Source of the DNA: Candidatus Thorarchaeota archaeon
Lineage (GTDB): Archaea; Asgardarchaeota; Thorarchaeia; Thorarchaeales; Thorarchaeaceae
Assembly (NCBI GenBank): GCA_003345555.1
Contig: PRDJ01000041.1
Span: 60,001 to 92,000, forward strand
Direction: 5' to 3'
Length of the DNA stretch: 32,000 bases
Under the pieces are notes generated by a model that had not been told where the DNA came from, made no database searches, and worked only from the letters and a program-made list of their open reading frames with translations. The position numbers and the translations under genes were made by a program. Position 1 is the first letter of the stretch, and the number at the start of each line of letters is the position of its first letter. Below are positions 16,482 through 30,651 of this stretch, in pieces.

Positions 16482-18785
16482 ATGAGGCACATTGGCAGGA
16501 AGATTCTCCCAGGGTTATTGGTGCCGCTCTTCCTCATTCTGGGGTCTTTTGTGGCTCCAGGAGCGGCGCTTCAGGCCAGTTCAATAATTGAGGAATATAA
16601 CCAGGCCATAGCGCCCGGACCTAATAATCATACATACATATTCAGCAAACCAGACCCGATCGATTTTGCGTCCTCGAGCAGGATGTACGTAAATGAAGAC
16701 CTAGACTATTTTGTCTACTCATATGATACCACGGGATGGACTAGGTCGGCCAGCTCATTGACTGCTCCCAGCAGTCCGCAGTTCGACTGGCAAGATTATT
16801 CTGAATGGACCAACGGCGCGTTTGGCAACCCGGCAACGATGCCACTCTTCTTCGACTTCATTGGCAGCGACGGAAGTGGTGCTGTCATCAACACAACCTT
16901 AGAGCGAAGATCTTTCGTTCTGACTATTAACCAGCACACGCCCATTGTCATGGATGGCGGCTTTGTCTCTTATGGGGCTCTGGCGATAAGCGGTCAGGAG
17001 TTCGTGAACCTGATAGTCAACTGTCGCCAAGATGTCGTGTCATGGGGTGCAGTGGTTGCCGACCCAGTTGGCAGGCTTGTGAACTCCGTTAGCGGTACTG
17101 GAGGCGACATACTCGTAGTCCCGTTCAGGCCCGCAATGGCTGGCAACTACATCGTAGTGCTCCGAGCGGATAATGCACCGGGTACTTCCGCACTCTTTGA
17201 TCTGTACCCTATTGCGGCGTCGGTCACAACAATCCCCTTTGGGGAAGTAATACAGGGAACACTTCCGACTGGCGAACTCATTGTCAGTAGTTCGGGCAGC
17301 TTAGTGCACCAAGAGATGGCACCCACCGTGAACACCTACAAGGTGACGTCTCCGGACAATCTGGCATCGGTGACATATGCGTTCAACTACCCTGAAGTGT
17401 CGACCGGCGTTCCACAAATAACCGGCATTCAGTTTACGAGGGATGCATATGAGTACGACACCAACGGCGGGATTCAGTACGTGCGTGGTTCCATCTCCCC
17501 GAATACTGCGGAGTTCTTCTATACAGGAGGACCCCTCTATGTGACAGTCTACGGTGGAGATAACGTTGAGTACACTCTCTACCATAAGGACAACGGTGCC
17601 GCGAACCTGCCGTTGAATAAAGAATTCCTACTCGAGAATGAATACGGTGTTACAATTCAGAAAGCCTACCGACTGCATGCGGAGCAGGACTCGCTCTTGA
17701 AGGCCAACTCCACTGGCGTTGGAGCTGACTATGATATCTCGGTGCTTGGAGTCAACGAGGATGGGTTCTTCAAGACTCAGACCATAACGGACGGTGCTAC
17801 AATTGAAGGGTCTACGGCATACTTCCTCCGAGCAGGGGACTACGTAGTAGTGATTAACATTGCTTCTACTACATCAGAGTACATTGAGTTCAGTCTCGGC
17901 GAGATAGTCGCTGATAGCTTGACGGCCGACTTGATGCGTCTTGGAGGCTTTAGGGTCCCAACAAACCCGTGTGAGCTCTACAACCTGACGCTACACCTCG
18001 ACACTCTCGACAACATCACGGTGACTGTCCAGATTGCGGCCTACACCAAATTCTACCAGTCTGTTTGGAGTACAAGTCTCACTCTTGCTAACCGATGGGA
18101 CGGAACCCACTGGGTGCCACACCCGACCTATAACAATTGGTCGACATTTCTCCCGGGTCGCACCTGGTCAGAGGGCTATTCCTACTTGACCATATCCTTC
18201 CGCGTGTACAACAACACGGGAGCACTGGCTGAGTATGCTAATCACCCAGTGAGGTTCACCGTCGATTGGAACGAGTACACCAATGAATGGTATGACGGAC
18301 ACGCAACGATGGACATCAGAAGTGCAGCGGCCATAAGCAATCTGACTCTAGAGTATCCAGGTACGAGCCCTAACTACATCGCACTAAGACTAGACACGAC
18401 GGCCGGGACATGGTACAACGTCTCAGTGAGGACAGCCGATGTGTCATCATTCACGGCTATTCTCTACAGCCTCTATGATTCTAGGACCCATTCTACCCCT
18501 TGGGCGGACCTTGATGACGATCTAGTGGGTTCAATACCCTACCTGTCATTCCAGTTTGGGGCTATCTCCGAGTATGCGATTCTCCATATCCAGTTGGGGC
18601 GGACACTAGCAGCAACAGGGTTCCTCTGGATTGAGATAACTCCACTAGAGAGTCACACACTGGGCTGGCTACCGCCTCTGAGTGCACCTGGACCGAACAT
18701 CCTAGCAATGCTAGCATTGCCAGTTTCATTGGGTGCCATTGCCGTTGTGGCCATATACGTCGTTTACGTCAAGAAGATAAAGTAG
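16482..18785 (+). CDS. large secreted, C-terminally anchored beta-rich surface protein (767 aa)
   Basis: Signal peptide (MRHIGRK + hydrophobic core), Tyr/Thr/Asn-rich beta-type body, nine N-x-S/T sequons, and a C-terminal TM followed by KKIK. GAGGTGA RBS at 16466-16472. Confidence 0.8.
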   Translation: MRHIGRKILPGLLVPLFLILGSFVAPGAALQASSIIEEYNQAIAPGPNNHTYIFSKPDPIDFASSSRMYVNEDLDYFVYSYDTTGWTRSASSLTAPSSPQFDWQDYSEWTNGAFGNPATMPLFFDFIGSDGSGAVINTTLERRSFVLTINQHTPIVMDGGFVSYGALAISGQEFVNLIVNCRQDVVSWGAVVADPVGRLVNSVSGTGGDILVVPFRPAMAGNYIVVLRADNAPGTSALFDLYPIAASVTTIPFGEVIQGTLPTGELIVSSSGSLVHQEMAPTVNTYKVTSPDNLASVTYAFNYPEVSTGVPQITGIQFTRDAYEYDTNGGIQYVRGSISPNTAEFFYTGGPLYVTVYGGDNVEYTLYHKDNGAANLPLNKEFLLENEYGVTIQKAYRLHAEQDSLLKANSTGVGADYDISVLGVNEDGFFKTQTITDGATIEGSTAYFLRAGDYVVVINIASTTSEYIEFSLGEIVADSLTADLMRLGGFRVPTNPCELYNLTLHLDTLDNITVTVQIAAYTKFYQSVWSTSLTLANRWDGTHWVPHPTYNNWSTFLPGRTWSEGYSYLTISFRVYNNTGALAEYANHPVRFTVDWNEYTNEWYDGHATMDIRSAAAISNLTLEYPGTSPNYIALRLDTTAGTWYNVSVRTADVSSFTAILYSLYDSRTHSTPWADLDDDLVGSIPYLSFQFGAISEYAILHIQLGRTLAATGFLWIEITPLESHTLGWLPPLSAPGPNILAMLALPVSLGAIAVVAIYVVYVKKIK

Positions 18786-18801
18786 GTCTAGAGCCCACTT
18801 T

Positions 18802-18834
18802 CGACCCGAGTGATCTCGGGTCGCTTCTTTTTTT
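18802..18834 (+). terminator. hairpin plus T-tract terminator
   Basis: Perfect 9-bp stem CGACCCGAG-TGAT-CTCGGGTCG followed by CTTCTTTTTTT, 16 nt after the stop codon of 16482..18785. Confidence 0.7.
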
Positions 18835-19003
18835 CCCGGATTTTCTTCACTCGACTTTGTAACAAGACTGACCAATGCCTGAGACTGTGGAGAAGCGCCG
18901 GTCTCCTTTTCAGATTCATGTCTTCGGCCCAGTCAGGACCAGGACTGAGAATGATTGCTCAATTGTGGATGAGTGAACAATGATGAACGGAAGCGCACCG
19001 AAT

Positions 19004-19687
19004 CTATGCCTTGCTTTCATTCTTGAGAGGAAGCTTAGGCTCCTGAACCAGTCTCATCCTATCATCCATCTCAATCATCAGGCGGGTCAGTTTTGTAAAT
19101 GCTTCGCGGATGTTCTGACCCGTCACAGCGGATGTCTCCTCGAAAACCACGGGGACTGTGAGCTTCTCACTGAAGAATTGGGCGAACTTGTGGCCCTCAT
19201 CATTTGTTACATTCTTCTCGAAGGGATTATCCTGTCTCAAATCTGTCTTGTTTGCCAACACCGCCGTTGGCGGAAGCTTGCCCATGTACTTGTACGCCTC
19301 CACAAGCCATTTCGAGGCGTTATCAAAGCTTTCGCGGTCAACCACAGAGTACACCAAGATTATGCCGCTGGAGCCAACGTAGTAGTGTCGCCGCACCTTC
19401 TCGAATGTGGGTTGACCTGCCAAGTCCCATATAATGAGACGAATGTTAACGCCATCGAGGTCAAAACGTGTCTGGGCAAAATCGACTCCGATGGTTGGCA
19501 TGTGACTTGTGATAAAACCCTCCCCAAGATACACCCTACGCAAGCTCGTTTTTCCTACCGCCCCGTCGCCAATTAGGACTACCTTGAATGTTCTATTGCC
19601 TGCGGCTTCGAATGTCAAGGGGGAGCGTCTCCTTAGGCTCTGTGGTGTACTCGTACATTCCTTATTAGAGCTCTCGTATGACATCAA
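19004..19687 (-). CDS. Rab-like small GTPase (Ras superfamily)
   Basis: G1 GDGAVGKT, G2/RabF1 PTIGVDF, G3 WDLAGQ, G4 ANKTD and G5 ETSA. RabF-like RLIIW, YYVGS and LVYSV. No C-terminal Cys. Exact start is uncertain. Confidence 0.93.
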   Translation of the reverse strand: MMSYESSNKECTSTPQSLRRRSPLTFEAAGNRTFKVVLIGDGAVGKTSLRRVYLGEGFITSHMPTIGVDFAQTRFDLDGVNIRLIIWDLAGQPTFEKVRRHYYVGSSGIILVYSVVDRESFDNASKWLVEAYKYMGKLPPTAVLANKTDLRQDNPFEKNVTNDEGHKFAQFFSEKLTVPVVFEETSAVTGQNIREAFTKLTRLMIEMDDRMRLVQEPKLPLKNESKA

Positions 19688-19862
19688 AGGGACCGGCTAC
19701 GTGAATGCCAGTCCAGTTCGACCACTCTGATCACAAAACGTCCTATATTCCCATTTCTGCTTTGAACCAATCCTTCATAGGTCACCTTTGGATGCTCGTA
19801 ACGCGGGACGCCATTCACCTGTCAATCGTGGGATTGAACCGACCGATACTGAGGAAAGAACA

Positions 19863-20804
19863 GTGTCTCTCGAGTCATCATCGACACTGCAGAACCAAGG
19901 GATATCTGAACCTTACTTCAGATTCAGGACGGTGTCTGTCAAGCATTTGTGTGAGCTGCAGCATCATATCGACATTCTGCGCCGCGATGGCCTCTTGAGC
20001 AACAATGAAACCTTCAGGAGCTACATTGACGGCAAGAGATTCGCAGTGCCCGAGTCGTTTCCTGACGCATGCTTCGTAATAATCATGGCCGTATTCGCGC
20101 CCTTGGCACTGGTCGGCTTCCATTACAAGGGAAAACGATTCGAGCTCATGCTGCCCCCCAATTACTACGACGATGGGATTTCGCAAGAGCAGCTGCAGAA
20201 CATGGTTTCAAACAGAATCATTCGAGAGCAAGGCCACCGAATCGAGAGGGCTAGCAGGAACCTTCTGGTCAAGACGCTTGCAGCAAGAAGCGGTCTCGGT
20301 AAGTACGGCAGGAATAACCTGTGCTATGTTGATGGGATGGGCAGCCTCTTGACGCTCCATGCGTTCTTCACTGACTACGCTTTCGAGCATGACGATTGGA
20401 CAGACATGCGGATGATGGATGCGTGTAAGAAGTGCAGGATCTGCATGAAGGAGTGTCCGAATGGGTGCATAACGGAGCAGAAGTTTGTCATCAATGTCGA
20501 CAAATGCCTGCCCTTGTACAATGAGGTGGAAGGGCAGTTCCCGGAGTGGATGCCAGCCAGTGCTCACAATGCCCTGATGGGCTGTATGAGGTGCCAGCTC
20601 AAGTGTCCGGCCAATCGCGATGCACTCAAGAGCAGCGTGCGGTTTGAAGATATCACTGAAGAAGAAACAGCGGCAATCCTAGAAGGGACAGTGGACGAGA
20701 GGCTCCTTCGGAGCCTGTCTGAGAAGCTCAGAGGCTTCTCTCCCACTACTTCGCTGGGGGAATTCCCGGTGTTGACGAGGAATCTGAGGGCACTGATAAT
20801 GTGA
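19863..20804 (+). CDS. QueG (epoxyqueuosine reductase)/reductive dehalogenase-like 4Fe-4S protein
   Basis: LAARSGLGKYGRNNL, CKKCRICMKECP...C and CMRCQLKCP. Start set at GTG 19863 (GAGGA upstream); the ORF track gives 19788. Confidence 0.7.
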   Translation: MSLESSSTLQNQGISEPYFRFRTVSVKHLCELQHHIDILRRDGLLSNNETFRSYIDGKRFAVPESFPDACFVIIMAVFAPLALVGFHYKGKRFELMLPPNYYDDGISQEQLQNMVSNRIIREQGHRIERASRNLLVKTLAARSGLGKYGRNNLCYVDGMGSLLTLHAFFTDYAFEHDDWTDMRMMDACKKCRICMKECPNGCITEQKFVINVDKCLPLYNEVEGQFPEWMPASAHNALMGCMRCQLKCPANRDALKSSVRFEDITEEETAAILEGTVDERLLRSLSEKLRGFSPTTSLGEFPVLTRNLRALIM

Positions 20805-21005
20805 TAACCTACGGGCGCGCGACACCGTTTTCCACTAACCATACTTTCGACCATCTCTCCCAGATTCGCGAGTACAAAAGAACAGACACGCTGTGACAGA
20901 AATGCCCTAGCAAGGGTCTGCCGCTCGACTCCCATCAGCGTGTGGCAGGTACCGTAAGCCTTACTTGTCGTTAGGCATGCGTTGCGCTGGTCGAGGCTCG
21001 AGCAG

Positions 21006-22985
21006 ATGGCAGGTTTCAAGCTGGTTGCCCCGTTCAAACTCACAGGAGATCAGCCCGACGCGGTGCAGAAGCTCGTGGAGGGCCTGAACAGTGGGCTTCA
21101 GCAACAAACTCTGCTCGGAGTCACTGGATCCGGTAAGACCTTCGTGATGGCCAATGTCATAGCTCACTACCAGAAGCCGACCATCGTCATCTCTCACAAC
21201 AAGATACTTGCGGCACAGCTCGCCGCTGAGTATCGACAGTTCTTCCCCGAGGATGCGGTGGAATACTTCGTCTCATACTATGACTATTACCAGCCAGAGG
21301 CATATGTCCCGACTAAGGACATGTACATTGAGAAGGAGACAGACATCAACGAAGAAATCGAGAAGCTTCGTAATTCCACGACTCGTTCTCTCAAGACCCG
21401 CAATGATGTTGTAGTCGTAGCTTCTGTGTCCTGTATCTACAACCTCGGCGACCCTAGGGAGTATGATGAGCTAGCTCTGACGCTAGAGGTGGGTCAGGAG
21501 ATCGAGAGGCGTACGCTGCTCGAGAAACTGATATCGATGCAATACGAGCGCAACGATATGGAACTCAAGGCGGGCATCTTCCGCGTTCGCGGCGATGTAA
21601 TTGATATTCATCCCGGTTACGAGTCAGAGACAGTAAGGCTCCAACTCGATGGCGACAGAATAGACCGAATCTCTATAGTTGACTCTCTGACATCCCATCG
21701 GATATTCGAGGAGCGTGGCATAGATATCTGGCCTGCGAAGCATCACGTTGCACGCCATGAGAAGACCTTGGCCGCCCTCGACTCGATTAAGGCAGAGATG
21801 GAGCAACGCGTTGAGTGGTTCAAGAAGCAGGGGAAGGTTGTCGAGGCAGACCGCCTCCGCCGAAGGACACTCTATGACATCGAGATGCTCCGACAGACCG
21901 GGTCTTGCGAAGGTGTTGAGAACTACTCCCGACACATAGATGCCAGAAAGCAGGGTGAAAAGCCCTACTGTCTCCTCGATTACTTCCCAGAGGACTTCCT
22001 GATGATCATCGATGAAAGCCATATGACCATTCCGCAACTTGAGGGGATGTATCACGGTGACATATCGCGTAAGCAGAGCCTTGTCGACTATGGTTTTCGG
22101 CTACCCTCTGCGTTTGACAATCGTCCATTGAAGTTCGACGAGTTCAAGGGTTACATGAAACACGTAATCTGCACGAGCGCAACACCGGGACCATACGAAA
22201 GAAAGTCAAGCAATCAGATTGTCGAACTGCTCCTGAGACCGACTGGTCTCATTGATCCGGAGATAACAGTAAAGCCCGTTGAGAATCAGGTCGACGATTT
22301 GTTGGCTGAGATAGGGAAAACAACGGCGAGACATGAGAGAGTGCTAGTGACAACGCTCACGAAGAAGACCGCGGAGATGCTTTCTGAGTATCTTGTGGAA
22401 TCAGGCGTCAAGGCTAGGTACCTCCACTCTGACATTAAGACAGTCGAGCGCATAGAAATCATCCGTGACTTGCGTCTCGGCAGGTTCGACGTGCTCGTGG
22501 GCATCAACCTGCTAAGGGAAGGACTCGACCTCCCAGAAGTCTCTCTTGTGGCCATTCTTGATGCCGACAAGGAGGGTTTTCTGAGAAGTGAGTGGGCACT
22601 CATCCAGACAATGGGGCGTGCTGCAAGGAATGTCAATGGCCGGGTCATACTCTACGGGGATCACATCTCGGCTGCCATGCAAGCCGCCATAAACGAGACC
22701 AACCGACGCAGGGAGTACCAGCTGCGATACAACGAGCAACACGGTATCACGCCCAAGACCATAGTGAAATCAGTATACGATATTGCCGAGCGCATCCCAT
22801 CGAAGAAGAAACCCGAGCAGGCGAAGATAGCTGACTTCGATTTCGTGGATATTGAAAGCATCACAGAGTTGATTGTCAATCTTGAGGAAGATATGAAGGA
22901 AGCAGCAAGGAACCTTGAGTTTGAACGAGCGGCGGAACTGCGAGACCAGATTCGTGAACTGCAGTCGAAGATTGAAGGGCGGTAG
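21006..22985 (+). CDS. uvrB: excinuclease ABC subunit B
   Basis: [46 protein letters not shown] and a C-terminal UVR motif [11 protein letters not shown]. Start at ATG 21006. Confidence 0.98.
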
Positions 22986-22988
22986 TGT

Positions 22989-25913
22989 ATGGCATCAAGT
23001 TCTAAGTCTCGTGCGAAGAGCGTGCGGCTGGATACGGAAGGTCCACAGGACATCGTTATCCGTGGAGCCGCAGAACACAACCTCAAGCACATCGACCTGC
23101 AGATACCTCGCAACAAGCTTACTGTTGTTACAGGAGTCTCCGGCTCGGGCAAGTCGAGTTTAGTATTCGATACCATATTCGCAGAAGGACAGCGCCGTTT
23201 CGTGGAGTCGCTTTCGCCCTATGCTCGACAGTTCCTTGGCATGCTTGAGAAGCCCAAGGTGGACTACATGTCAGGGCTGTCTCCTTCAATCTCAATCGAC
23301 CAGAAGAGTGCTGGTCACAATCCTAGGAGCACAGTCGGCACTATCACTGAGATCTACGATTTCTTGAGGCTCCTGTTTGCCCGTGTTGGAGTGCCCCATT
23401 GCCCAAAGTGTGGCAAGAAGATTGAACCCCAGACTGCGCAGCAGATTGTCGACAGGGTTCTTGCTCTTGGAGAGGGGACAAGCATCGCCATCATGGCACC
23501 AATCGTCCGAGAAAGAAAAGGAGAATACAGGAAGGAGTTCCGTGACCTACTTGAGAAGGGGTTCGTCAGAGTACGTGTTGACGGAGAACTGAAAGACATC
23601 GAAGAGGGCACGTCGCTAGACCGATACTACAAGCACACAATTGAGGTTGTAATAGACCGCCTCAAGGTATCTGATTCCCAGAGAGCAAGAATATCGGAAG
23701 CGGTAGAAACCGCCCTCACGATGGCTGATAGAGTGGTGACGATTGCTGCAGACTCAGGCGACCTCACACTTTCGGAGAAGTTTGCATGTGTAGATTGCGG
23801 CATCAGCCTTCCCGAAATGGAACCACGCCTATTCTCATGGAACACTCCACACGGGGCGTGTCCAACCTGCACCGGGCTCGGGGTCATCAGAGAGATAGAC
23901 ACAAAGCTTGTAGTGTCAGATGATTCGCTCTCAATCTCTCAAGGAGCAATCGCACCCTACAATTGGATGTCTAAGTCTACAACGATCAAGGCGGTTGCCA
24001 ATAGGTATGGATTCTCCATGGACACTCCCTGGAGAGATCTAACTCCAGATCAGAAGGACAAGATACTCTGGGGAACAGGTGACGAAGAAATCAAGATTGA
24101 CTGGCACTGGGGAGACGATCCCGCGAAAACCCAGTGGGAAGGGACAACGGTCGCTCCATTTCGCGGCGTGATTGCTCAAATGGAACGGAACTACAAGTCA
24201 ACCAAGTCAAACTACATCCGCGAGTGGCTTGAGCATTTCATGGTAGACCATGAGTGCTCGGTATGCAAGGGCTTGCGGCTTCGACCCGAGTCGACTGCCG
24301 TGAAGTTCAGAGATCTCTCGATAACCGATGTGAACAGTATGTCCATCAAGGACCTATCCGAGTTCTTCCAATCCGTGGTCCTGTCGCCGCGAGAAGAACC
24401 AATTGCCCATCCAATCATCAAGGAGATAATGGGAAGGTTGGGTTTCTTGATGGAGGTCGGCCTCGACTACCTGACACTCGATCGGTCTGCACCGTCACTC
24501 GCCGGAGGAGAAGCACAAAGAATCCGACTAGCGAGCCAGATTGGCTCCAATCTTGTGGGAGTGACCTACGTATGTGACGAGCCTTCTATTGGGCTTCATC
24601 AACGTGATAACCTCAGGCTTCTGCGCTCATTGAAGAGCCTACGAGACATAGGAAACACAGTGGTTGTAGTCGAGCATGATGAGTCCACTATGAGAGCCGC
24701 TGACTACCTTGTTGACCTCGGACCCGGGGCCGGCGATGAAGGCGGTCGAGTTGTTGTTGCGGGAAAGGTCGATGATGTGCTTGCATCGAAGAAATCGTTA
24801 ACCGCCAAATATCTTCGAGGCGATGAGAAGATACCAGTGCCTGCTGTTCGAAGACAACCGAACGGCAGATTCATTGAGATAAAGGGTGCCCGGCATCACA
24901 ACCTCAAGTCCATAGACGTTAAGATTCCTCTCGGACTCTTCGTTTGTGTCACGGGCGTATCGGGCAGTGGAAAGTCGAGCCTGATAGACGAGACGCTTCA
25001 GAGAGAGCTAGCAAGGAGGTTCTACAATGCTACAGCCACACCCGGTGAGTGCGATGCCATTATTGGTGCTGAACAACTCGACAAGGTCATTATCATTGAT
25101 CAGAGCCCGATTGGTCGCACACCAAGATCTAACCCCGCGACCTACGTAAGCCTGTTCTCGGACATTCGAGACCTCTTCTCAGGCTTGCCCGAGGCGAAGA
25201 TCAGAGGTTACAAACCGGGTAGGTTCAGCTTCAATGTGAAAGGCGGGCGGTGCGAAAAGTGCAGGGGTGCAGGTGTTGAAGTCATAGAGATGCAGTTCCT
25301 CCCACCTGTTGAGGTCACCTGCGCTGAATGCAAGGGGCGACGATACAACAGAGAGACACTTCAGGTCCGCTACAAGGGCAAGAACATAGCCGACGTCCTT
25401 GCAATGAGAACAGACGAAGCACTTGACTTCTTCGCAGACTTACCATCAATTCATCGCAAGCTGAAGACACTCTACGAGGTGGGCATGGGCTATGTTCAAC
25501 TGGGCCAGCCCGCGACGACACTGAGTGGCGGAGAGGCACAAAGAATCAAACTAAGCAAGTTCCTTTCGCGGCCCGCCACCGGTCAGACTCTGCTCCTCCT
25601 CGACGAACCGACGACCGGGCTCCATTTTGCAGACATCAAGAAGCTGCTTGAGGTTCTTCATAGGCTTGTGGACTTGGGCAATACAGTGCTCGTTGTGGAG
25701 CATCAGCTCGATGTTGTGAAGACCGCGGACTGGGTGATTGATTTGGGCCCTGAGGGCGGCGACGAGGGCGGCTACCTCATCGCAGAAGGTACTCCAGAGC
25801 AAGTGGCTGAACGCGAGAACTCATACACTGGGAAGTACCTCAGAGGGGTGCTTCACGAGGCGAGACCAGAAGCTGCAGTCCAAAGAAGCGGCACGAGGAG
25901 GAAGAAGCCATGA
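22989..25913 (+). CDS. uvrA: excinuclease ABC subunit A, copy 1 (full length, 974 aa)
   Basis: GAAEHNLK, two Walker A motifs (GVSGSGKSS), AEGQRRFVESLSPYARQFL, UvrB-binding domain, LAGGEAQR, DEPSIGLH, C-terminal Zn finger (CEKC...CAEC) and DEPTTGLH. Confidence 0.97.
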   Translation: MASSSKSRAKSVRLDTEGPQDIVIRGAAEHNLKHIDLQIPRNKLTVVTGVSGSGKSSLVFDTIFAEGQRRFVESLSPYARQFLGMLEKPKVDYMSGLSPSISIDQKSAGHNPRSTVGTITEIYDFLRLLFARVGVPHCPKCGKKIEPQTAQQIVDRVLALGEGTSIAIMAPIVRERKGEYRKEFRDLLEKGFVRVRVDGELKDIEEGTSLDRYYKHTIEVVIDRLKVSDSQRARISEAVETALTMADRVVTIAADSGDLTLSEKFACVDCGISLPEMEPRLFSWNTPHGACPTCTGLGVIREIDTKLVVSDDSLSISQGAIAPYNWMSKSTTIKAVANRYGFSMDTPWRDLTPDQKDKILWGTGDEEIKIDWHWGDDPAKTQWEGTTVAPFRGVIAQMERNYKSTKSNYIREWLEHFMVDHECSVCKGLRLRPESTAVKFRDLSITDVNSMSIKDLSEFFQSVVLSPREEPIAHPIIKEIMGRLGFLMEVGLDYLTLDRSAPSLAGGEAQRIRLASQIGSNLVGVTYVCDEPSIGLHQRDNLRLLRSLKSLRDIGNTVVVVEHDESTMRAADYLVDLGPGAGDEGGRVVVAGKVDDVLASKKSLTAKYLRGDEKIPVPAVRRQPNGRFIEIKGARHHNLKSIDVKIPLGLFVCVTGVSGSGKSSLIDETLQRELARRFYNATATPGECDAIIGAEQLDKVIIIDQSPIGRTPRSNPATYVSLFSDIRDLFSGLPEAKIRGYKPGRFSFNVKGGRCEKCRGAGVEVIEMQFLPPVEVTCAECKGRRYNRETLQVRYKGKNIADVLAMRTDEALDFFADLPSIHRKLKTLYEVGMGYVQLGQPATTLSGGEAQRIKLSKFLSRPATGQTLLLLDEPTTGLHFADIKKLLEVLHRLVDLGNTVLVVEHQLDVVKTADWVIDLGPEGGDEGGYLIAEGTPEQVAERENSYTGKYLRGVLHEARPEAAVQRSGTRRKKP

Positions 25914-28789
25914 CGGGCTACATCAAGGTCCGAGGCGCCTCTGAGCACAACCTGAAGGGTATCGACGTCGACATCCCGAGAGACAGGCTCGTTGTCGTCA
26001 CGGGACCCTCAGGTTCGGGGAAATCCAGTCTTGTCTTTGATACCATCTTTGCCGAAGGTCAGAGGAGATATGTTGAATCACTCTCATCATATGCCAGGAG
26101 GTTTCTGGGTCGACTCGATAAGCCGAGAGTTGAGTCAATCACAGGCTTGCCACCCGCAATCTCAATTGAGCAGAAAGGGGGAACCAAGAACCCCAGAAGC
26201 ACGGTTGGAACCAGTACCGAGATTCACGACTATCTACGACTTCTGTTTGCCAACATAGGCATCCCGCACTGCCTCAAGTGTGGTGCCGCTATGGAACAAC
26301 TCACTGCGGATTCGGCTGCAACACTTCTGCTTCAGGAGAATGGTGGCAAGAGAATCGTGGTTCTCGCCCCGGTCGCGAGAGAAGAGCCAGGAAAACTAGA
26401 GGATACGCTCCAGCATCTGACCGAGAACGGTTTCACGCGAGTCAGGGTCGACGGGGAGATTCGAGAACTTGAAGGACTAGAACTGGACGGCCGCAAGAAG
26501 CACAATGTGGACGTAGTCGTTGATAGAGTCGAGCTGGGCGAGAAGAGCAGAGAAAGACTGGTCGGTTCCATTGAGACTGCTCTAGAGTCAGGGCAGGGTT
26601 CGGCAGTCATAGCTCGGGAAGGGGAGCAGGATATAGTATTCGCAGAGAAACTCATGTGCCCACACTGCGGTATTCAATACGAAAAGCTCGAACCCAAGGC
26701 TTTCTCGTACAACACTCCTGCTGGCGCATGTCCGGCCTGCAACGGTCTCGGTGCCACAATCAGCATCGATCCGGAGAAGATTGTTCCAAATAAGATACTC
26801 AGTCTAACAGATGGTGCCCTGAAGCCATGGGCCGGGTCTCAACAGTCATGGCCGTATCGCTTGCTTGAAGCTCTATCTGCAGAAGCGAACTTCTCCCTTG
26901 ACACGCTGTGGAGCAAGCTTCCAGAGTCCGTTCACGACCTCATAATGTGGGGTCGTCCGCCACTCAGAGTGAAGTTCTCCTATCAGCAGATTGACTACAA
27001 GGGACGACTTCAAACAGTAAACGTGACCCGCACTTGGGAGGGCATGGTACCTAGATTTGAGAGGCACCTTCGCGGAAGACTATCCGAAGAGACCAAAGAG
27101 AAGATCATCAGTCTATACTCAAGCAGGAAGGTCTGTGCAGCATGTGGTGGCAAGAAACTTCGACCGGAAAGTCTCGCAGTGACAGTTGCAGGAAAGACAA
27201 TCGACAGCGTAACCTCAATGACAATCGAAGATGCTCTCGACTTCTTCAAGAATATCGAACTGACAGAGCGGGAGCACAAGATTGCTGGACTCATCCTGAA
27301 AGAGATCGTGTCCCGTTTATCATTCATAGTATCAGTCGGACTTGACTATCTCAACCTTGACCGTCCATCGATGACACTCTCGGGCGGAGAATCACAGAGA
27401 ATCCGTTTGGCGACTCAGATTGGGTCTGCGTTGACGGGAGTACTCTACTGCTTGGATGAGCCCTCGGTCGGTCTGCACCCTCGCGATATTTCACGGCTGC
27501 TTGTCACTCTGATTCGACTGAGGAGCCTTGGCAACACGGTTGTAGTAATCGAACACGACCGTGACACAATCAATGCGGCAGACTACGTTGTGGACTTGGG
27601 TCCGGGAGCCGGCGTCCACGGAGGAAAGCTAGTCGCATGCGGCACTCCTGAAGAAGTGCTCTCGAGTCCGAAATCACTCACTGCCCTCTATCTCGCAGGC
27701 AAGAAGCAGATACCAGTGCCCAAGACGAGAAGGGCGGGTAGCGGAAAGTCAGTAGTCGTAAGGGGAGCCCGTCAGAACAACCTGAGAAACATAGACGTTG
27801 CATTTCCACTTGGGAGATTCATCTGTGTCACGGGAGTCTCTGGCAGTGGTAAGAGTACGCTCGTCCACGAGACACTATACAAAGCCTTGGCCCAAGTCAT
27901 GGGTTCCTCCACGGAGACACCTGGTGACCATGACGGGATTGACGGAGCCGAGAACATTGACCGTCTAATACTGGTGGACCAGTCTCCCATTGGACGAACT
28001 CCTCGGTCAAACCCTGCAACCTACACAAAGGTCTTCGATGAGATTCGCAAGCTCTTTGCACTGACTCCCGAGGCAAAGGCGAGAGGCTACACGGCAGGCA
28101 GGTTCAGCTTCAACACGAGAGCCGGCAGATGTGAGAAGTGCCAAGGCAGTGGGCTTCTTCGAGTCGAGATGCACTTCATGACCGATGTCTACATCACCTG
28201 CGACGTGTGCAACGGTAATCGCTTTGACAGAGAGACACTCGAGGTGAAATACAAAGGCAGGAACATAACTGAGGTTCTCAGGATGAATATCGAGGAGGCA
28301 CTGGGATTCTTCCAAGACATTCCGCAGGTGGCCGACAGGCTGCAGACACTCGCTGATGTTGGTCTTGGATACGTCGAACTCGGCCAGCCCGCGACCACGC
28401 TCAGCGGAGGCGAGGCACAAAGGGTTAAGCTTGCAGCAGAACTCTCGCGCAGAAACACAGGGTCTACCCTATACATACTTGACGAGCCTACAACCGGCCT
28501 CTCAGCATCAGACGTGGATGTGCTCCTCAAGGTCTTGAATCGGCTTGTCGACTCTGGCAACACTGTCATCGTCATCGAGCACAACCAAGAAGTCATAAAG
28601 ACTGCAGACTGGGTGATTGATTTGGGTCCCGAAGGTGGGGTCAAGGGTGGTACCTTGGTTGCCGCAGGAACGCCAGAAGAGGTCTCATCAGTACCCGAGT
28701 CTTTCACTGGGCAGCATCTCAAAAGCGCTCTTTCAGGTCCCAAAGTGCGTCACAGTGTAGTTACCACACTGCCGCCTCCAAAGACCTGA
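25910..28789 (+). CDS. uvrA: excinuclease ABC subunit A, copy 2 (full length, 959 aa)
   Basis: [17 protein letters not shown] and [28 protein letters not shown], UvrB-binding-like domain, [16 protein letters not shown] and C-terminal Zn finger (CEKC...CDVC). ATGA overlap with copy 1. Confidence 0.95.
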
Positions 28790-28839
28790 TTTATCACTGA
28801 CTGCATCGCAATATCAGCTGACGAACGGAGATTCTCGAT

Positions 28840-30651
28840 GTGTCCGATCTTGCCAAACTGGTTGGTGACCTTCCTGAGCTTCCAGGGGTGTACCTCTGGA
28901 AGGATGAAGCAGGCAAGATCATTTACATTGGAAAAGCCAAGTCACTTCGGAAACGTGTTAGCTCATATCTCAGCAGAAAGGAATTGGACTCAAAGACTGA
29001 AGATCTCATGAACCATGCCCGTGACCTTGAGACGATAGTGACTAACAACGAGCTTGAGGCTGTGATACTCGAGTCAACACTCATCAAGCAACATATGCCA
29101 AAATACAACATCGCACTGAAGGACGATCGAAGGCATGCTTGGATACGTGTTGACCTCAACAAGGAGTATCCAGTGTTTGAGGTGACTCGCGATGTCGCAA
29201 AGGACGGGGCCAACTACTACGGGCCCTATGGAAGCACAAGGCGGCTCGACAGATTCCTAGATTCAGCTCGTAAGTTCATTCCTATTGCTATGTGCAAGAG
29301 CCCAGAAGCTGTCAAGAGGGAGTGCACAGATTACTACCTTGGTAGATGTGCGGGACCTTGCAAAGAGCATGTCCCAAGAGAAGAATACAGATCCATGGTC
29401 GAACAGATGCGTCTGTACCTTGAGGGAAAGGAAGCCCAGCTGACTCAAGCAGTCAAGAAGGAGATGGACAAAGCTGCTAACAACCTCGAGTTCGAGAGAG
29501 CTGCCAGACTCAGAGATCGGCTCAAGGACATAGAGATAGTCATGAGGAAACAGAAAGTCTTCGACGTCGCCGAAATTGACAAAGACGTTCTTGGAATATC
29601 CAGAACCGAACAGGCTGCTCTCGTTGAGATGCTCATCATTAGGACGGGAAGGCTTGTTGGCACAGACCATTTCTATTTCGAACTGAGCATGGATACGACG
29701 GATTCGGAAGTCCTCTCTTCATTTGTAAAGCAGTTCTACTTCAAACTCCCTCAGGTCCCTGATGAGATACTCGTGCCGGTCGAAATACCTGAAATGGAAC
29801 AGCTTGGCGATTGGCTTAGTCAAAACAGGGCCGTGCCCATTAAGCTGTATCTGCCCGCTGAGGGTAAAGCGAACGAACTCGTCAAGATGGCAAACGCAAA
29901 CGCCACGAGAAGCCTACGGAGGATACTCGTTCTTGGAGACCGGGACGAAGACATTGTTGACGAGGGCGTCAAACAGCTCAAGGAAGCTCTGGGACTCACT
30001 CGCGCGCCGTTCCACATAGAAGGCTTCGACATTGCTAACATTCAGGGAACCGACCCGACCGGTTCATGTGTGGTCTTCGTCAACGGTCAAGCCGCAAATA
30101 GCAGCTACCGGATGTTCAGGGTACGCGTGAAAGAGACCCCCGATGATTATGCCATGATGTCAGAAGTGGTGCTGAGAAGGTATAGAGGCGTCCTTGAAGA
30201 GGGCGGTGTCATCCCTGATTTGATAATGGTCGACGGAGGAAAGGGCCAGCTAAGTGCGGCGCTCAAGGCTCTTGATCAGCTCGGACTCGAATACCTCCCA
30301 GTTGCGGCTCTTGCAAAGAAAGAGGAGATCATCTATACTCAAGACAACATGGACGGAATTGCTCTCCCGCCTGAGTCGCAAGGCCTGCGATTGATTGAAA
30401 GTATACGAGACGAGGCACACCGATTTGCGCAACGATACCATCACATCCTGAGAGAGAAGAGATTCACGGGTTCGATACTGGAGGAGGCGCCGGGGATTGG
30501 ACCGAAGAGGAGAGCCGCCTTGCTCAATGCATTCGGCAGCTACGAAAAGGTCAGGTCAGCGAGTGTAGAGGAACTGGCGAAAGTTGAGGGGATGTCGCAA
30601 AAGACCGCAGAAGCACTCAAGGAGTGGCTTGACAAGGACGAAATTGCCTAG
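28840..30651 (+). CDS. uvrC: excinuclease ABC subunit C
   Basis: GIY-YIG domain (GVYLWK...YIGKAKSLRKRV), Cys cluster, UVR motif LEFERAARLRD, RNase H-like IEGFDIANIQG and DLIMVDGGKGQL, and a C-terminal HhH (PGIGPKR). Confidence 0.97.
   Translation: MSDLAKLVGDLPELPGVYLWKDEAGKIIYIGKAKSLRKRVSSYLSRKELDSKTEDLMNHARDLETIVTNNELEAVILESTLIKQHMPKYNIALKDDRRHAWIRVDLNKEYPVFEVTRDVAKDGANYYGPYGSTRRLDRFLDSARKFIPIAMCKSPEAVKRECTDYYLGRCAGPCKEHVPREEYRSMVEQMRLYLEGKEAQLTQAVKKEMDKAANNLEFERAARLRDRLKDIEIVMRKQKVFDVAEIDKDVLGISRTEQAALVEMLIIRTGRLVGTDHFYFELSMDTTDSEVLSSFVKQFYFKLPQVPDEILVPVEIPEMEQLGDWLSQNRAVPIKLYLPAEGKANELVKMANANATRSLRRILVLGDRDEDIVDEGVKQLKEALGLTRAPFHIEGFDIANIQGTDPTGSCVVFVNGQAANSSYRMFRVRVKETPDDYAMMSEVVLRRYRGVLEEGGVIPDLIMVDGGKGQLSAALKALDQLGLEYLPVAALAKKEEIIYTQDNMDGIALPPESQGLRLIESIRDEAHRFAQRYHHILREKRFTGSILEEAPGIGPKRRAALLNAFGSYEKVRSASVEELAKVEGMSQKTAEALKEWLDKDEIA

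Follow-up and report, generated by a model that had tools for sequence, protein, structure and literature searches.

UvrA is a textbook homodimer, yet it must act asymmetrically on a lesion in one strand. A similar case is MutS, a symmetric lesion sensor of the ABC (ATP-binding cassette) type that is asymmetric on DNA. In eukaryotes, the MutS homodimer has been replaced, after duplication, by the two specialised subunits of the MSH2-MSH6 heterodimer. We describe here a uvrB-uvrA-uvrA-uvrC operon of Candidatus Thorarchaeota, an Asgard archaeon, which may have undergone a comparable change. The operon lies in a stretch of 32,000 nucleotides (nt) of contig PRDJ01000041.1, assembly GCA_003345555.1 (positions 60,001 to 92,000, forward strand), hereafter called the window. 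It carries two complete and diverged class I uvrA genes, uvrA1 and uvrA2, whose products are called A1 and A2. The best reading of this pair is a preferred or obligate A1-A2 heterodimer, to which we give an even chance of being correct. MutS and MSH2-MSH6 belong to another protein family, and heterodimerisation is proven there, whereas it is proposed for the pair of Thorarchaeia.

The canonical class I UvrA homodimer is represented by the proteins of E. coli, G. stearothermophilus (2R6F, 3UWX) and C. thermocellum (9GXK series, PMC12796330). A1 and A2 share its two ABC and three Zn modules, its UvrB-binding and insertion domains, its dimer-contact residues and its operon partners UvrB and UvrC, and they match the solved chains over the full length with E = 0. 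In the canonical system, one gene encodes identical chains. Here, in contrast, two 52%-identical genes have been kept together through the history of the class, with fixed differences at the dyad (Y55F in A1; Q65R and S82P in A2) and strongly diverged insertion domains.

Two UvrA units are also found within one polypeptide, in the fused double UvrAs of the Chlamydia type (NF001885/PRK00635), which have been reported for Planctomycetes as well (PMC8567305). As in the Thorarchaeia pair, the two units are diverged and stand in a fixed order with the second more diverged, and their 1:1 dose is probably another common point. Unlike the fused forms, A1 and A2 are separate polypeptides with a stop codon, an own start and a Shine-Dalgarno-like site between them, and whereas many fused forms have lost the UvrB-binding or the insertion domain in one half, both units of Thorarchaeia are complete. 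NCBIfam NF001885 (1809 positions) is a curated model of the fused double UvrA. A1 and A2 reach 714 and 697 bits against it, far below its cut-off of 3054, and they are separate open reading frames (ORFs) in all Thorarchaeia loci examined, not two units on one polypeptide. Fused double-length UvrAs dominate the best matches of a library-wide search and form more than 100 clusters at 50% identity. Since they are numerous, curated and published, heteromeric UvrA is a recurrent and viable design. An unfused tandem of two full-length uvrA genes was found in none of 61 Planctomycetota genomes sampled, while fused forms were present in about 25 of these.

Second UvrA-family copies in a genome are also known in the form of class II UvrAs, such as D. 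radiodurans UvrA2 (2VF7), Ecm16 (7SH1) and DrrC. Class II UvrAs are without the UvrB-binding domain and Zn module 1 (PMC10192343). In contrast, A1 and A2 carry both, and the class II-like protein of the window genome is encoded elsewhere by a separate fused gene. This third UvrA-family gene, on contig 17 at 17852-22711 (-) (= L060:1855-6711), encodes a double unit of 1619 amino acids (aa) that lacks a Pfam match to the UvrB-binding or the insertion domain, and it also occurs in genomes G002, G008 and G017. Our literature search found no report on a tandem or heterodimeric class I UvrA, nor on the UvrA of Asgard archaea or Thorarchaeota. Databases name both proteins just "excinuclease ABC subunit UvrA".

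The operon of the window is composed of the following features.

21006-22985 (+): uvrB, 659 aa, the sole uvrB in the genome; NCBIfam UvrB equivalogs at 1010 and 1001 bits (cut-offs 743 and 750)
22989-25913 (+): uvrA1, 974 aa, the less diverged of the two full class I UvrAs; wedge Y78/Q81/F82, and Phe at the dyad Tyr55 position
23229-23231 (+): Q81 codon of UvrA1, the canonical wedge Gln kept (mapped to the numbering of C. thermocellum UvrA, PMC12796330)
25895-25913 (+): A1/A2 junction, with Shine-Dalgarno-like GAGGAGG at 25895-25901 within the end of uvrA1, an 8-nt spacer and an ATGA overlap at 25910-25913
25910-28789 (+): uvrA2, 959 aa, the more diverged of the two full class I UvrAs, restricted to metagenome-assembled genomes (MAGs) of Thorarchaeia type
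26096-26104 (+): R63-R64-F65 codons of UvrA2, with R64 (26099-26101) in place of the wedge Gln (Q65 of C. thermocellum UvrA); the Arg motif is matched at 86075-86104 of contig 41
28840-30651 (+): uvrC, 603 aa, GTG start with GGAG 8 nt upstream, the sole uvrC in the genome; TIGR00194 at 528 bits (cut-off 285)

The uvrA, uvrB and uvrC genes are all present and intact, and together they make up a UvrABC excision repair operon. The operon coordinates, the two uvrA product lengths and the spacings between the genes in the initial annotation agree exactly with the ORF list and with the DNA. A gap of 3 nt separates the uvrB stop TAG (22983-22985) from the A1 ATG at 22989, the A1 stop TGA (25911-25913) overlaps the A2 ATG (25910-25912), and 50 nt lie between the A2 stop (28787-28789) and the uvrC GTG at 28840. 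The start of uvrB is the ATG at 21006 and not the TTG at 20982, in agreement with the N-termini of orthologues. In its product, Pfam UvrB_inter is matched at residues 158-246, and the uvrC product contains the GIY-YIG, UvrC RNase H and HhH domains (Pfam). Base composition is even over the window.

A1 and A2 are 52% identical over 939 residues. Both exceed the cut-offs of the UvrA equivalog model NF001503 (A1 1422 and A2 1372 bits; cut-off 1147) and of TIGR00630 (1350 and 1310 bits; cut-off 730). The UvrB-binding domain (Pfam UvrA_inter) is matched at 123 bits in A1 and 94 bits in A2, and the insertion domain (Pfam UvrA_DNA-bind) at 100 and 84 bits. The Walker A Lys, the Walker B Asp-Glu, the Q-loops, the H-loops and the signatures are all present in both copies, giving four ATP sites that are conserved in both clades, and the three Zn modules retain every Cys pair. 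The initial annotation was right to describe two complete, diverged and coupled class I UvrAs in place of a recent duplicate, and right to separate both from class II by the UvrB-binding domain. The Cys pairs that flank this domain are present in both as well.

Neither copy is degenerate, because each keeps about 90% of the canonical columns (A1 278/310; A2 283/310). These 310 columns are at least 85% conserved in an alignment of 16 single UvrAs from several phyla. Fixed different residues occur at only 8 of them in A1 and at only 10 in A2. Signature I of A1 reads LAGGE (Ser to Ala), D-loop II of A2 reads GLS (His to Ser), and the UvrB-binding domains of the two copies differ as RGRKGEY and KKH. 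A complementary erosion of the ATPase and UvrB-binding motifs was considered and rejected, since ordinary single UvrAs vary at these positions too; for the same reason, the changes are not read as loss of function.

Divergence between the copies is uneven along the chain. Identity is lowest in the insertion domain (22%), followed by the UvrB-binding domain (35%). Within its own clade, however, the UvrB-binding domain is conserved at 68% (A1) and 65% (A2). The suggestion of the initial annotation that the copies divide the loading of UvrB finds no support here, because the domain is conserved in both of them, and there is no sign that one copy alone recruits UvrB. When the A2 UvrB-binding domain was modelled in complex with UvrB domain 2, the score was 0.56, against 0.00 for the best of three controls; as similar complexes have been solved (3FPN, 3UWX), the score may reflect the predictor's knowledge of them. 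Of 80 solved complexes, 58 reach the mark used for such predictions, as do 2 of 110 mismatched pairs; scores at 0.60 or below account for only 7 of the 80 and for both of the mismatches that passed. At least 95% of the contacts are common to the runs, and the predicted local distance difference test (pLDDT) of the partner is at least 82. The model weakly suggests that the A2 domain docks on UvrB domain 2.

The tandem is ancient and stable. In a survey of 87 Thorarchaeia genomes from 17 genera, including one genome of a second family, A1 and A2 adjoin on one contig in about 55 genomes. These cover all 17 genera sampled and include the genome of the second family. Measured against A2, proteins of A2 type across the class are 64-100% identical and those of A1 type 49-55%. 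The gene order in tandem loci is invariably uvrB-A1-A2-uvrC, and the 4-nt overlap of A1 and A2 is present in 15 of 17 Thorarchaeia loci examined. No genome with an assembled locus has lost one copy (about 55 loci); where a Thorarchaeia genome gave no match, it is incomplete or the locus falls at contig ends. The pair has been kept through the history of the class. A2 orthologues occur in Thorarchaeia-type MAGs only, and the closest proteins thereafter do not exceed 52% identity. In other Asgard lineages, uvrA is absent or stands singly in a uvrB-uvrA-uvrC arrangement; family f5 has a fused double UvrA of 1916 aa.

Both copies are under strong constraint. Against a same-genus genome, A1 has a nonsynonymous divergence (dN) of 0.097 and A2 one of 0.103, and the synonymous divergence (dS) is saturated. 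At greater distance, the dN values of A1 and A2 are about equal to that of uvrB and lower than that of uvrC. Apart from the operon, a third full-length class I-like UvrA is encoded in about 14 of the 87 Thorarchaeia genomes (e.g., G008 contig 5, L048:3895-6816 (-), and G017 contig 50, L049). It is 42-45% identical to A2, lies on a very long branch (1.11) and keeps the UvrB-binding and insertion domains. All three of its wedge residues are replaced (Y62 to T, Q65 to T, F66 to M).

In phylogenetic trees, the A1 clade and the A2 clade are each monophyletic with 100% support, on stems of 0.21 (A1) and 0.44 (A2). A1 branches with N-halves from one fused family; the Shimodaira-Hasegawa approximate likelihood ratio test (SH-aLRT) gives this grouping 98 under LG+G4 and 91 under C20. 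A2 joins the fused C-halves under LG+G4 only (SH-aLRT 84). As this grouping disappears under C20, the better model, it was set aside as possible long-branch attraction. A sister relationship of A1 and A2 is not rejected in a 47-row LG+G4 test, where the approximately unbiased test gives p-AU 0.34. The initial annotation called the tandem an unfused counterpart of the fused form, and this stands as an analogy only. The pair may have arisen by duplication in the stem of Thorarchaeia, or it may have been imported as a pair or as a fusion. The 1916-aa protein noted above is a single ORF of genome G028 (L046:3499-9249 (+)) with two full-length UvrA units, and it is closest to the bacterial-type fused P0011. 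It was considered as a fused form of the Thorarchaeia pair and rejected, since its halves group with bacterial fused proteins; it was probably acquired separately.

The dimer dyad is where the copies can be compared with a known structure. A cryo-EM study of C. thermocellum UvrA (2025, PMC12796330) defined the dimer-contact residues and described a wedge to which each protomer contributes Y62, Q65 and F66. At the dyad, this wedge penetrates the helix and causes bases to flip. We mapped these residues onto A1 and A2 by alignment and keep the C. thermocellum numbering. Eleven contacts are identical in the two copies, namely R54, S58, A63, F66, L67, G80, L81, P83, I85, L507 and V510. Since all of these published contacts agree, nothing visible prevents cross-dimerisation. 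Fixed differences at contact or wedge positions are Y55 to Phe and A84 to Ser in A1, and Q65 to Arg, S82 to Pro and position 508 to Thr in A2. Beside N270/N271 lies a Phe that deepens the wedge contact; A1 has Trp and A2 has Tyr in its place. The paralogue-specific residues at the dyad are shared by 90-100% of the proteins of each clade. The interface and wedge columns (15 of 310) are over-represented among the columns with fixed departures (3 of 16), with a hypergeometric p of 0.035 that was calculated post hoc.

The wedge Gln is the most distinct of these positions. All 102 A2-type proteins of Thorarchaeia have Arg here, whereas A1, all 16 diverse single UvrAs and all 75 bacterial single UvrAs examined have Gln. 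Among 43 fused double UvrAs with both motifs recognisable, the wedge pair is (Q,Q) in 29, (Q,R) in 10, (R,Q) in 3 and (Q,T) in one, and (R,R) was found in none of them. The one-sided change from Gln to Arg in these fused proteins (13/43) occurs in at least three separate clades, in the N-half in some and in the C-half in others. Among 400 Asgard genomes, 60 Thorarchaeia carry the Arg motif, each of them a single time, and the only further genome with it is G404 (family f33, 91% complete). The latter encodes a lone class I UvrA of 968 aa with the A2-type wedge Arg (L148:5038-7944 (-)). The gene sits between uvrB and uvrC with spacers of 1 kb and 3 kb, and the only other UvrA-family gene there is a class II-like ORF of 827 aa. 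An absolute rule that the wedge Arg occurs only in paired UvrAs is ruled out by this protein. One-sided Arg is a feature that these alignments mark as typical of paired UvrAs and not exclusive to them.

In the preferred reading, the damage sensor of a complete, bacterial-type nucleotide excision repair operon would have become two different class I subunits through an old duplication. A1 and A2 would be made from one mRNA in roughly equal amounts, with translation of A2 starting at the stop/start overlap from a separate ribosome-binding site within the end of uvrA1. They would dimerise via the conserved ATP-binding-I contacts, and the resulting heterodimer would recruit the single type of UvrB at both ends before handing over to UvrC. 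Such a complex would be a built-in asymmetric version of canonical UvrA2, with a dyad wedge composed of Gln from A1 and Arg from A2. Because the wedge is unequal and the insertion domains are only 22% identical, the sides or strands of a lesion could be read differently. Mixed dimers are to be expected unless they are prevented, given near-identical contacts, one mRNA and the retention of both copies across the class without exception. The fixed one-sided changes at the dyad point to the mixed dimer as the working form that selection has kept, and so does their parallel in the fused proteins, where a 1:1 ratio of the halves is inevitable. The sequences show the genes with their completeness, age, constraint, coupling signals and residue asymmetries; mutual binding, the mixed dimer as the main working form and the purpose of the asymmetry are inferences.

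Several observations weigh against this reading. The uvrB/A1 and A2/uvrC genes also overlap in several relatives, so that coupling is a habit of the operon and not a mark of the A1/A2 pair. The initial annotation had taken translational coupling to favour the heterodimer, an argument that is weakened by these overlaps. The interface is conserved in both copies, which leaves A1-A1 and A2-A2 homodimers equally unhindered. The lone UvrA of G404 carries the Arg, and an Arg/Arg wedge is probably viable for that reason. The 75 bacterial single UvrAs with the wedge Gln are mostly from Bacteroidota and are not independent. Lastly, the off-operon third UvrA in about 14 of the 87 genomes shows that additional copies, not necessarily paired ones, are tolerated in this family. 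The heterodimer claim of the initial annotation is left with circumstantial support, from the class-wide tandem with its order and overlap, the constraint, the single uvrB, the near-identical contacts and the one-sided wedge Arg, and with the same Arg in a lone Asgard UvrA as its counterweight.

A stronger version of the heterodimer reading is possible, although we advance it only tentatively and would doubt it sooner than accept it. Here the A1-A2 heterodimer would be obligate and intrinsically asymmetric. Its unlike wedge and insertion domains would give the two sides of a lesion different jobs, for example, probing the damaged strand and holding the partner strand, and this would bias which UvrB loads productively. 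The same one-sided Gln-to-Arg change would have evolved repeatedly in fused UvrAs. If this is true, "heterodimerised UvrA" would be a general, overlooked design, in parallel to the step from MutS to MSH2-MSH6.

Of the alternatives to the preferred reading, two separate homodimeric sensors survive best, and we regard them as rather unlikely. A1-A1 would be a general sensor, whereas A2-A2 would have specialised in a different class of lesion or DNA context, and the two would work with the same UvrB and UvrC. Each copy has every domain needed to act alone, and the low identity of the insertion and UvrB-binding domains fits differing substrate preferences. A lone UvrA with the A2-type Arg and a third class I-like UvrA outside the operon in some Thorarchaeia point in the same direction. 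However, independent enzymes would not need the strict adjacency, fixed order and overlap that are seen across the class, and with 11 identical contact residues there is no visible bar to cross-dimerisation. The absence of (R,R) from the 43 fused doubles, against one-sided Arg in 13 of them, also speaks against this alternative.

Less likely again is a statistical mixture of A1A1, A1A2 and A2A2 with no preference among them, in which the pair would be kept for dosage or mild subfunctionalisation. A conserved interface, the retention of about 90% of the canonical columns in both copies and the lack of a complementary loss of ATPase motifs are all compatible with such mixing. Redundancy, however, predicts the sporadic loss of one copy, and no loss is seen in about 55 assembled loci. 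The fixation of paralogue-specific dyad residues in each clade also counts against mixing of this kind.

The window genome is a MAG from wetland metagenomes, of 2.28 Mb in 82 contigs and 93% complete, and the window is on its contig 41. A1 and A2 are its only class I UvrAs, and it has one uvrB and one uvrC. The DNA of the operon was matched in wetland metagenome runs from two studies, and no RNA run was listed among the matches to the A1-A2 stretch. One metagenome contig of 20.8 kb covers the entire operon, and a contig of 2,477 bases, from an independent wetland run of the other study, bridges 25480-27956 across the A1/A2 junction with 0 mismatches. The misassembly of two strains that the initial annotation had reckoned with is excluded by this bridging contig and by the same tandem in about 55 other genomes. 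An artefact or decay of any kind (misassembly, a recent duplicate or a pseudogene in one copy) has a negligible probability, for although the window stems from a metagenome-assembled genome and the same-genus genome G003 has frame breaks in uvrB, A1 and A2, the copies are only 52% identical, 17 genera have the same tandem, each of the two frames is intact and under strong constraint, and the breaks in G003 span the whole operon in one assembly only. In G003 (L044/L069), uvrB, uvrA1 and uvrA2 are frame-broken or truncated, as a result of either assembly indels or decay of the whole operon.

Upstream of the operon, ORF 19788-20804 encodes a 4Fe-4S double-cluster domain. Two further ORFs just upstream of the operon region, of 767 aa (16482-18785 (+)) and 198 aa (18980-19576 (+)), match no Pfam family at E <= 1e-5.

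The tandem of Thorarchaeia is a variant of the well-known UvrABC system and is akin in design to the known but unstudied fused UvrAs. It offers a natural system with separately mutable sensor halves, which is impossible in a homodimer, and it could show the role of the wedge, the insertion domain and the UvrB site of each protomer. For the numerous fused double UvrAs, which are unstudied, it also provides an idea that can be tested, the one-sided change of the wedge. For the organisms themselves, the operon means that Asgard archaea of this class rely on an elaborated bacterial-type repair system.

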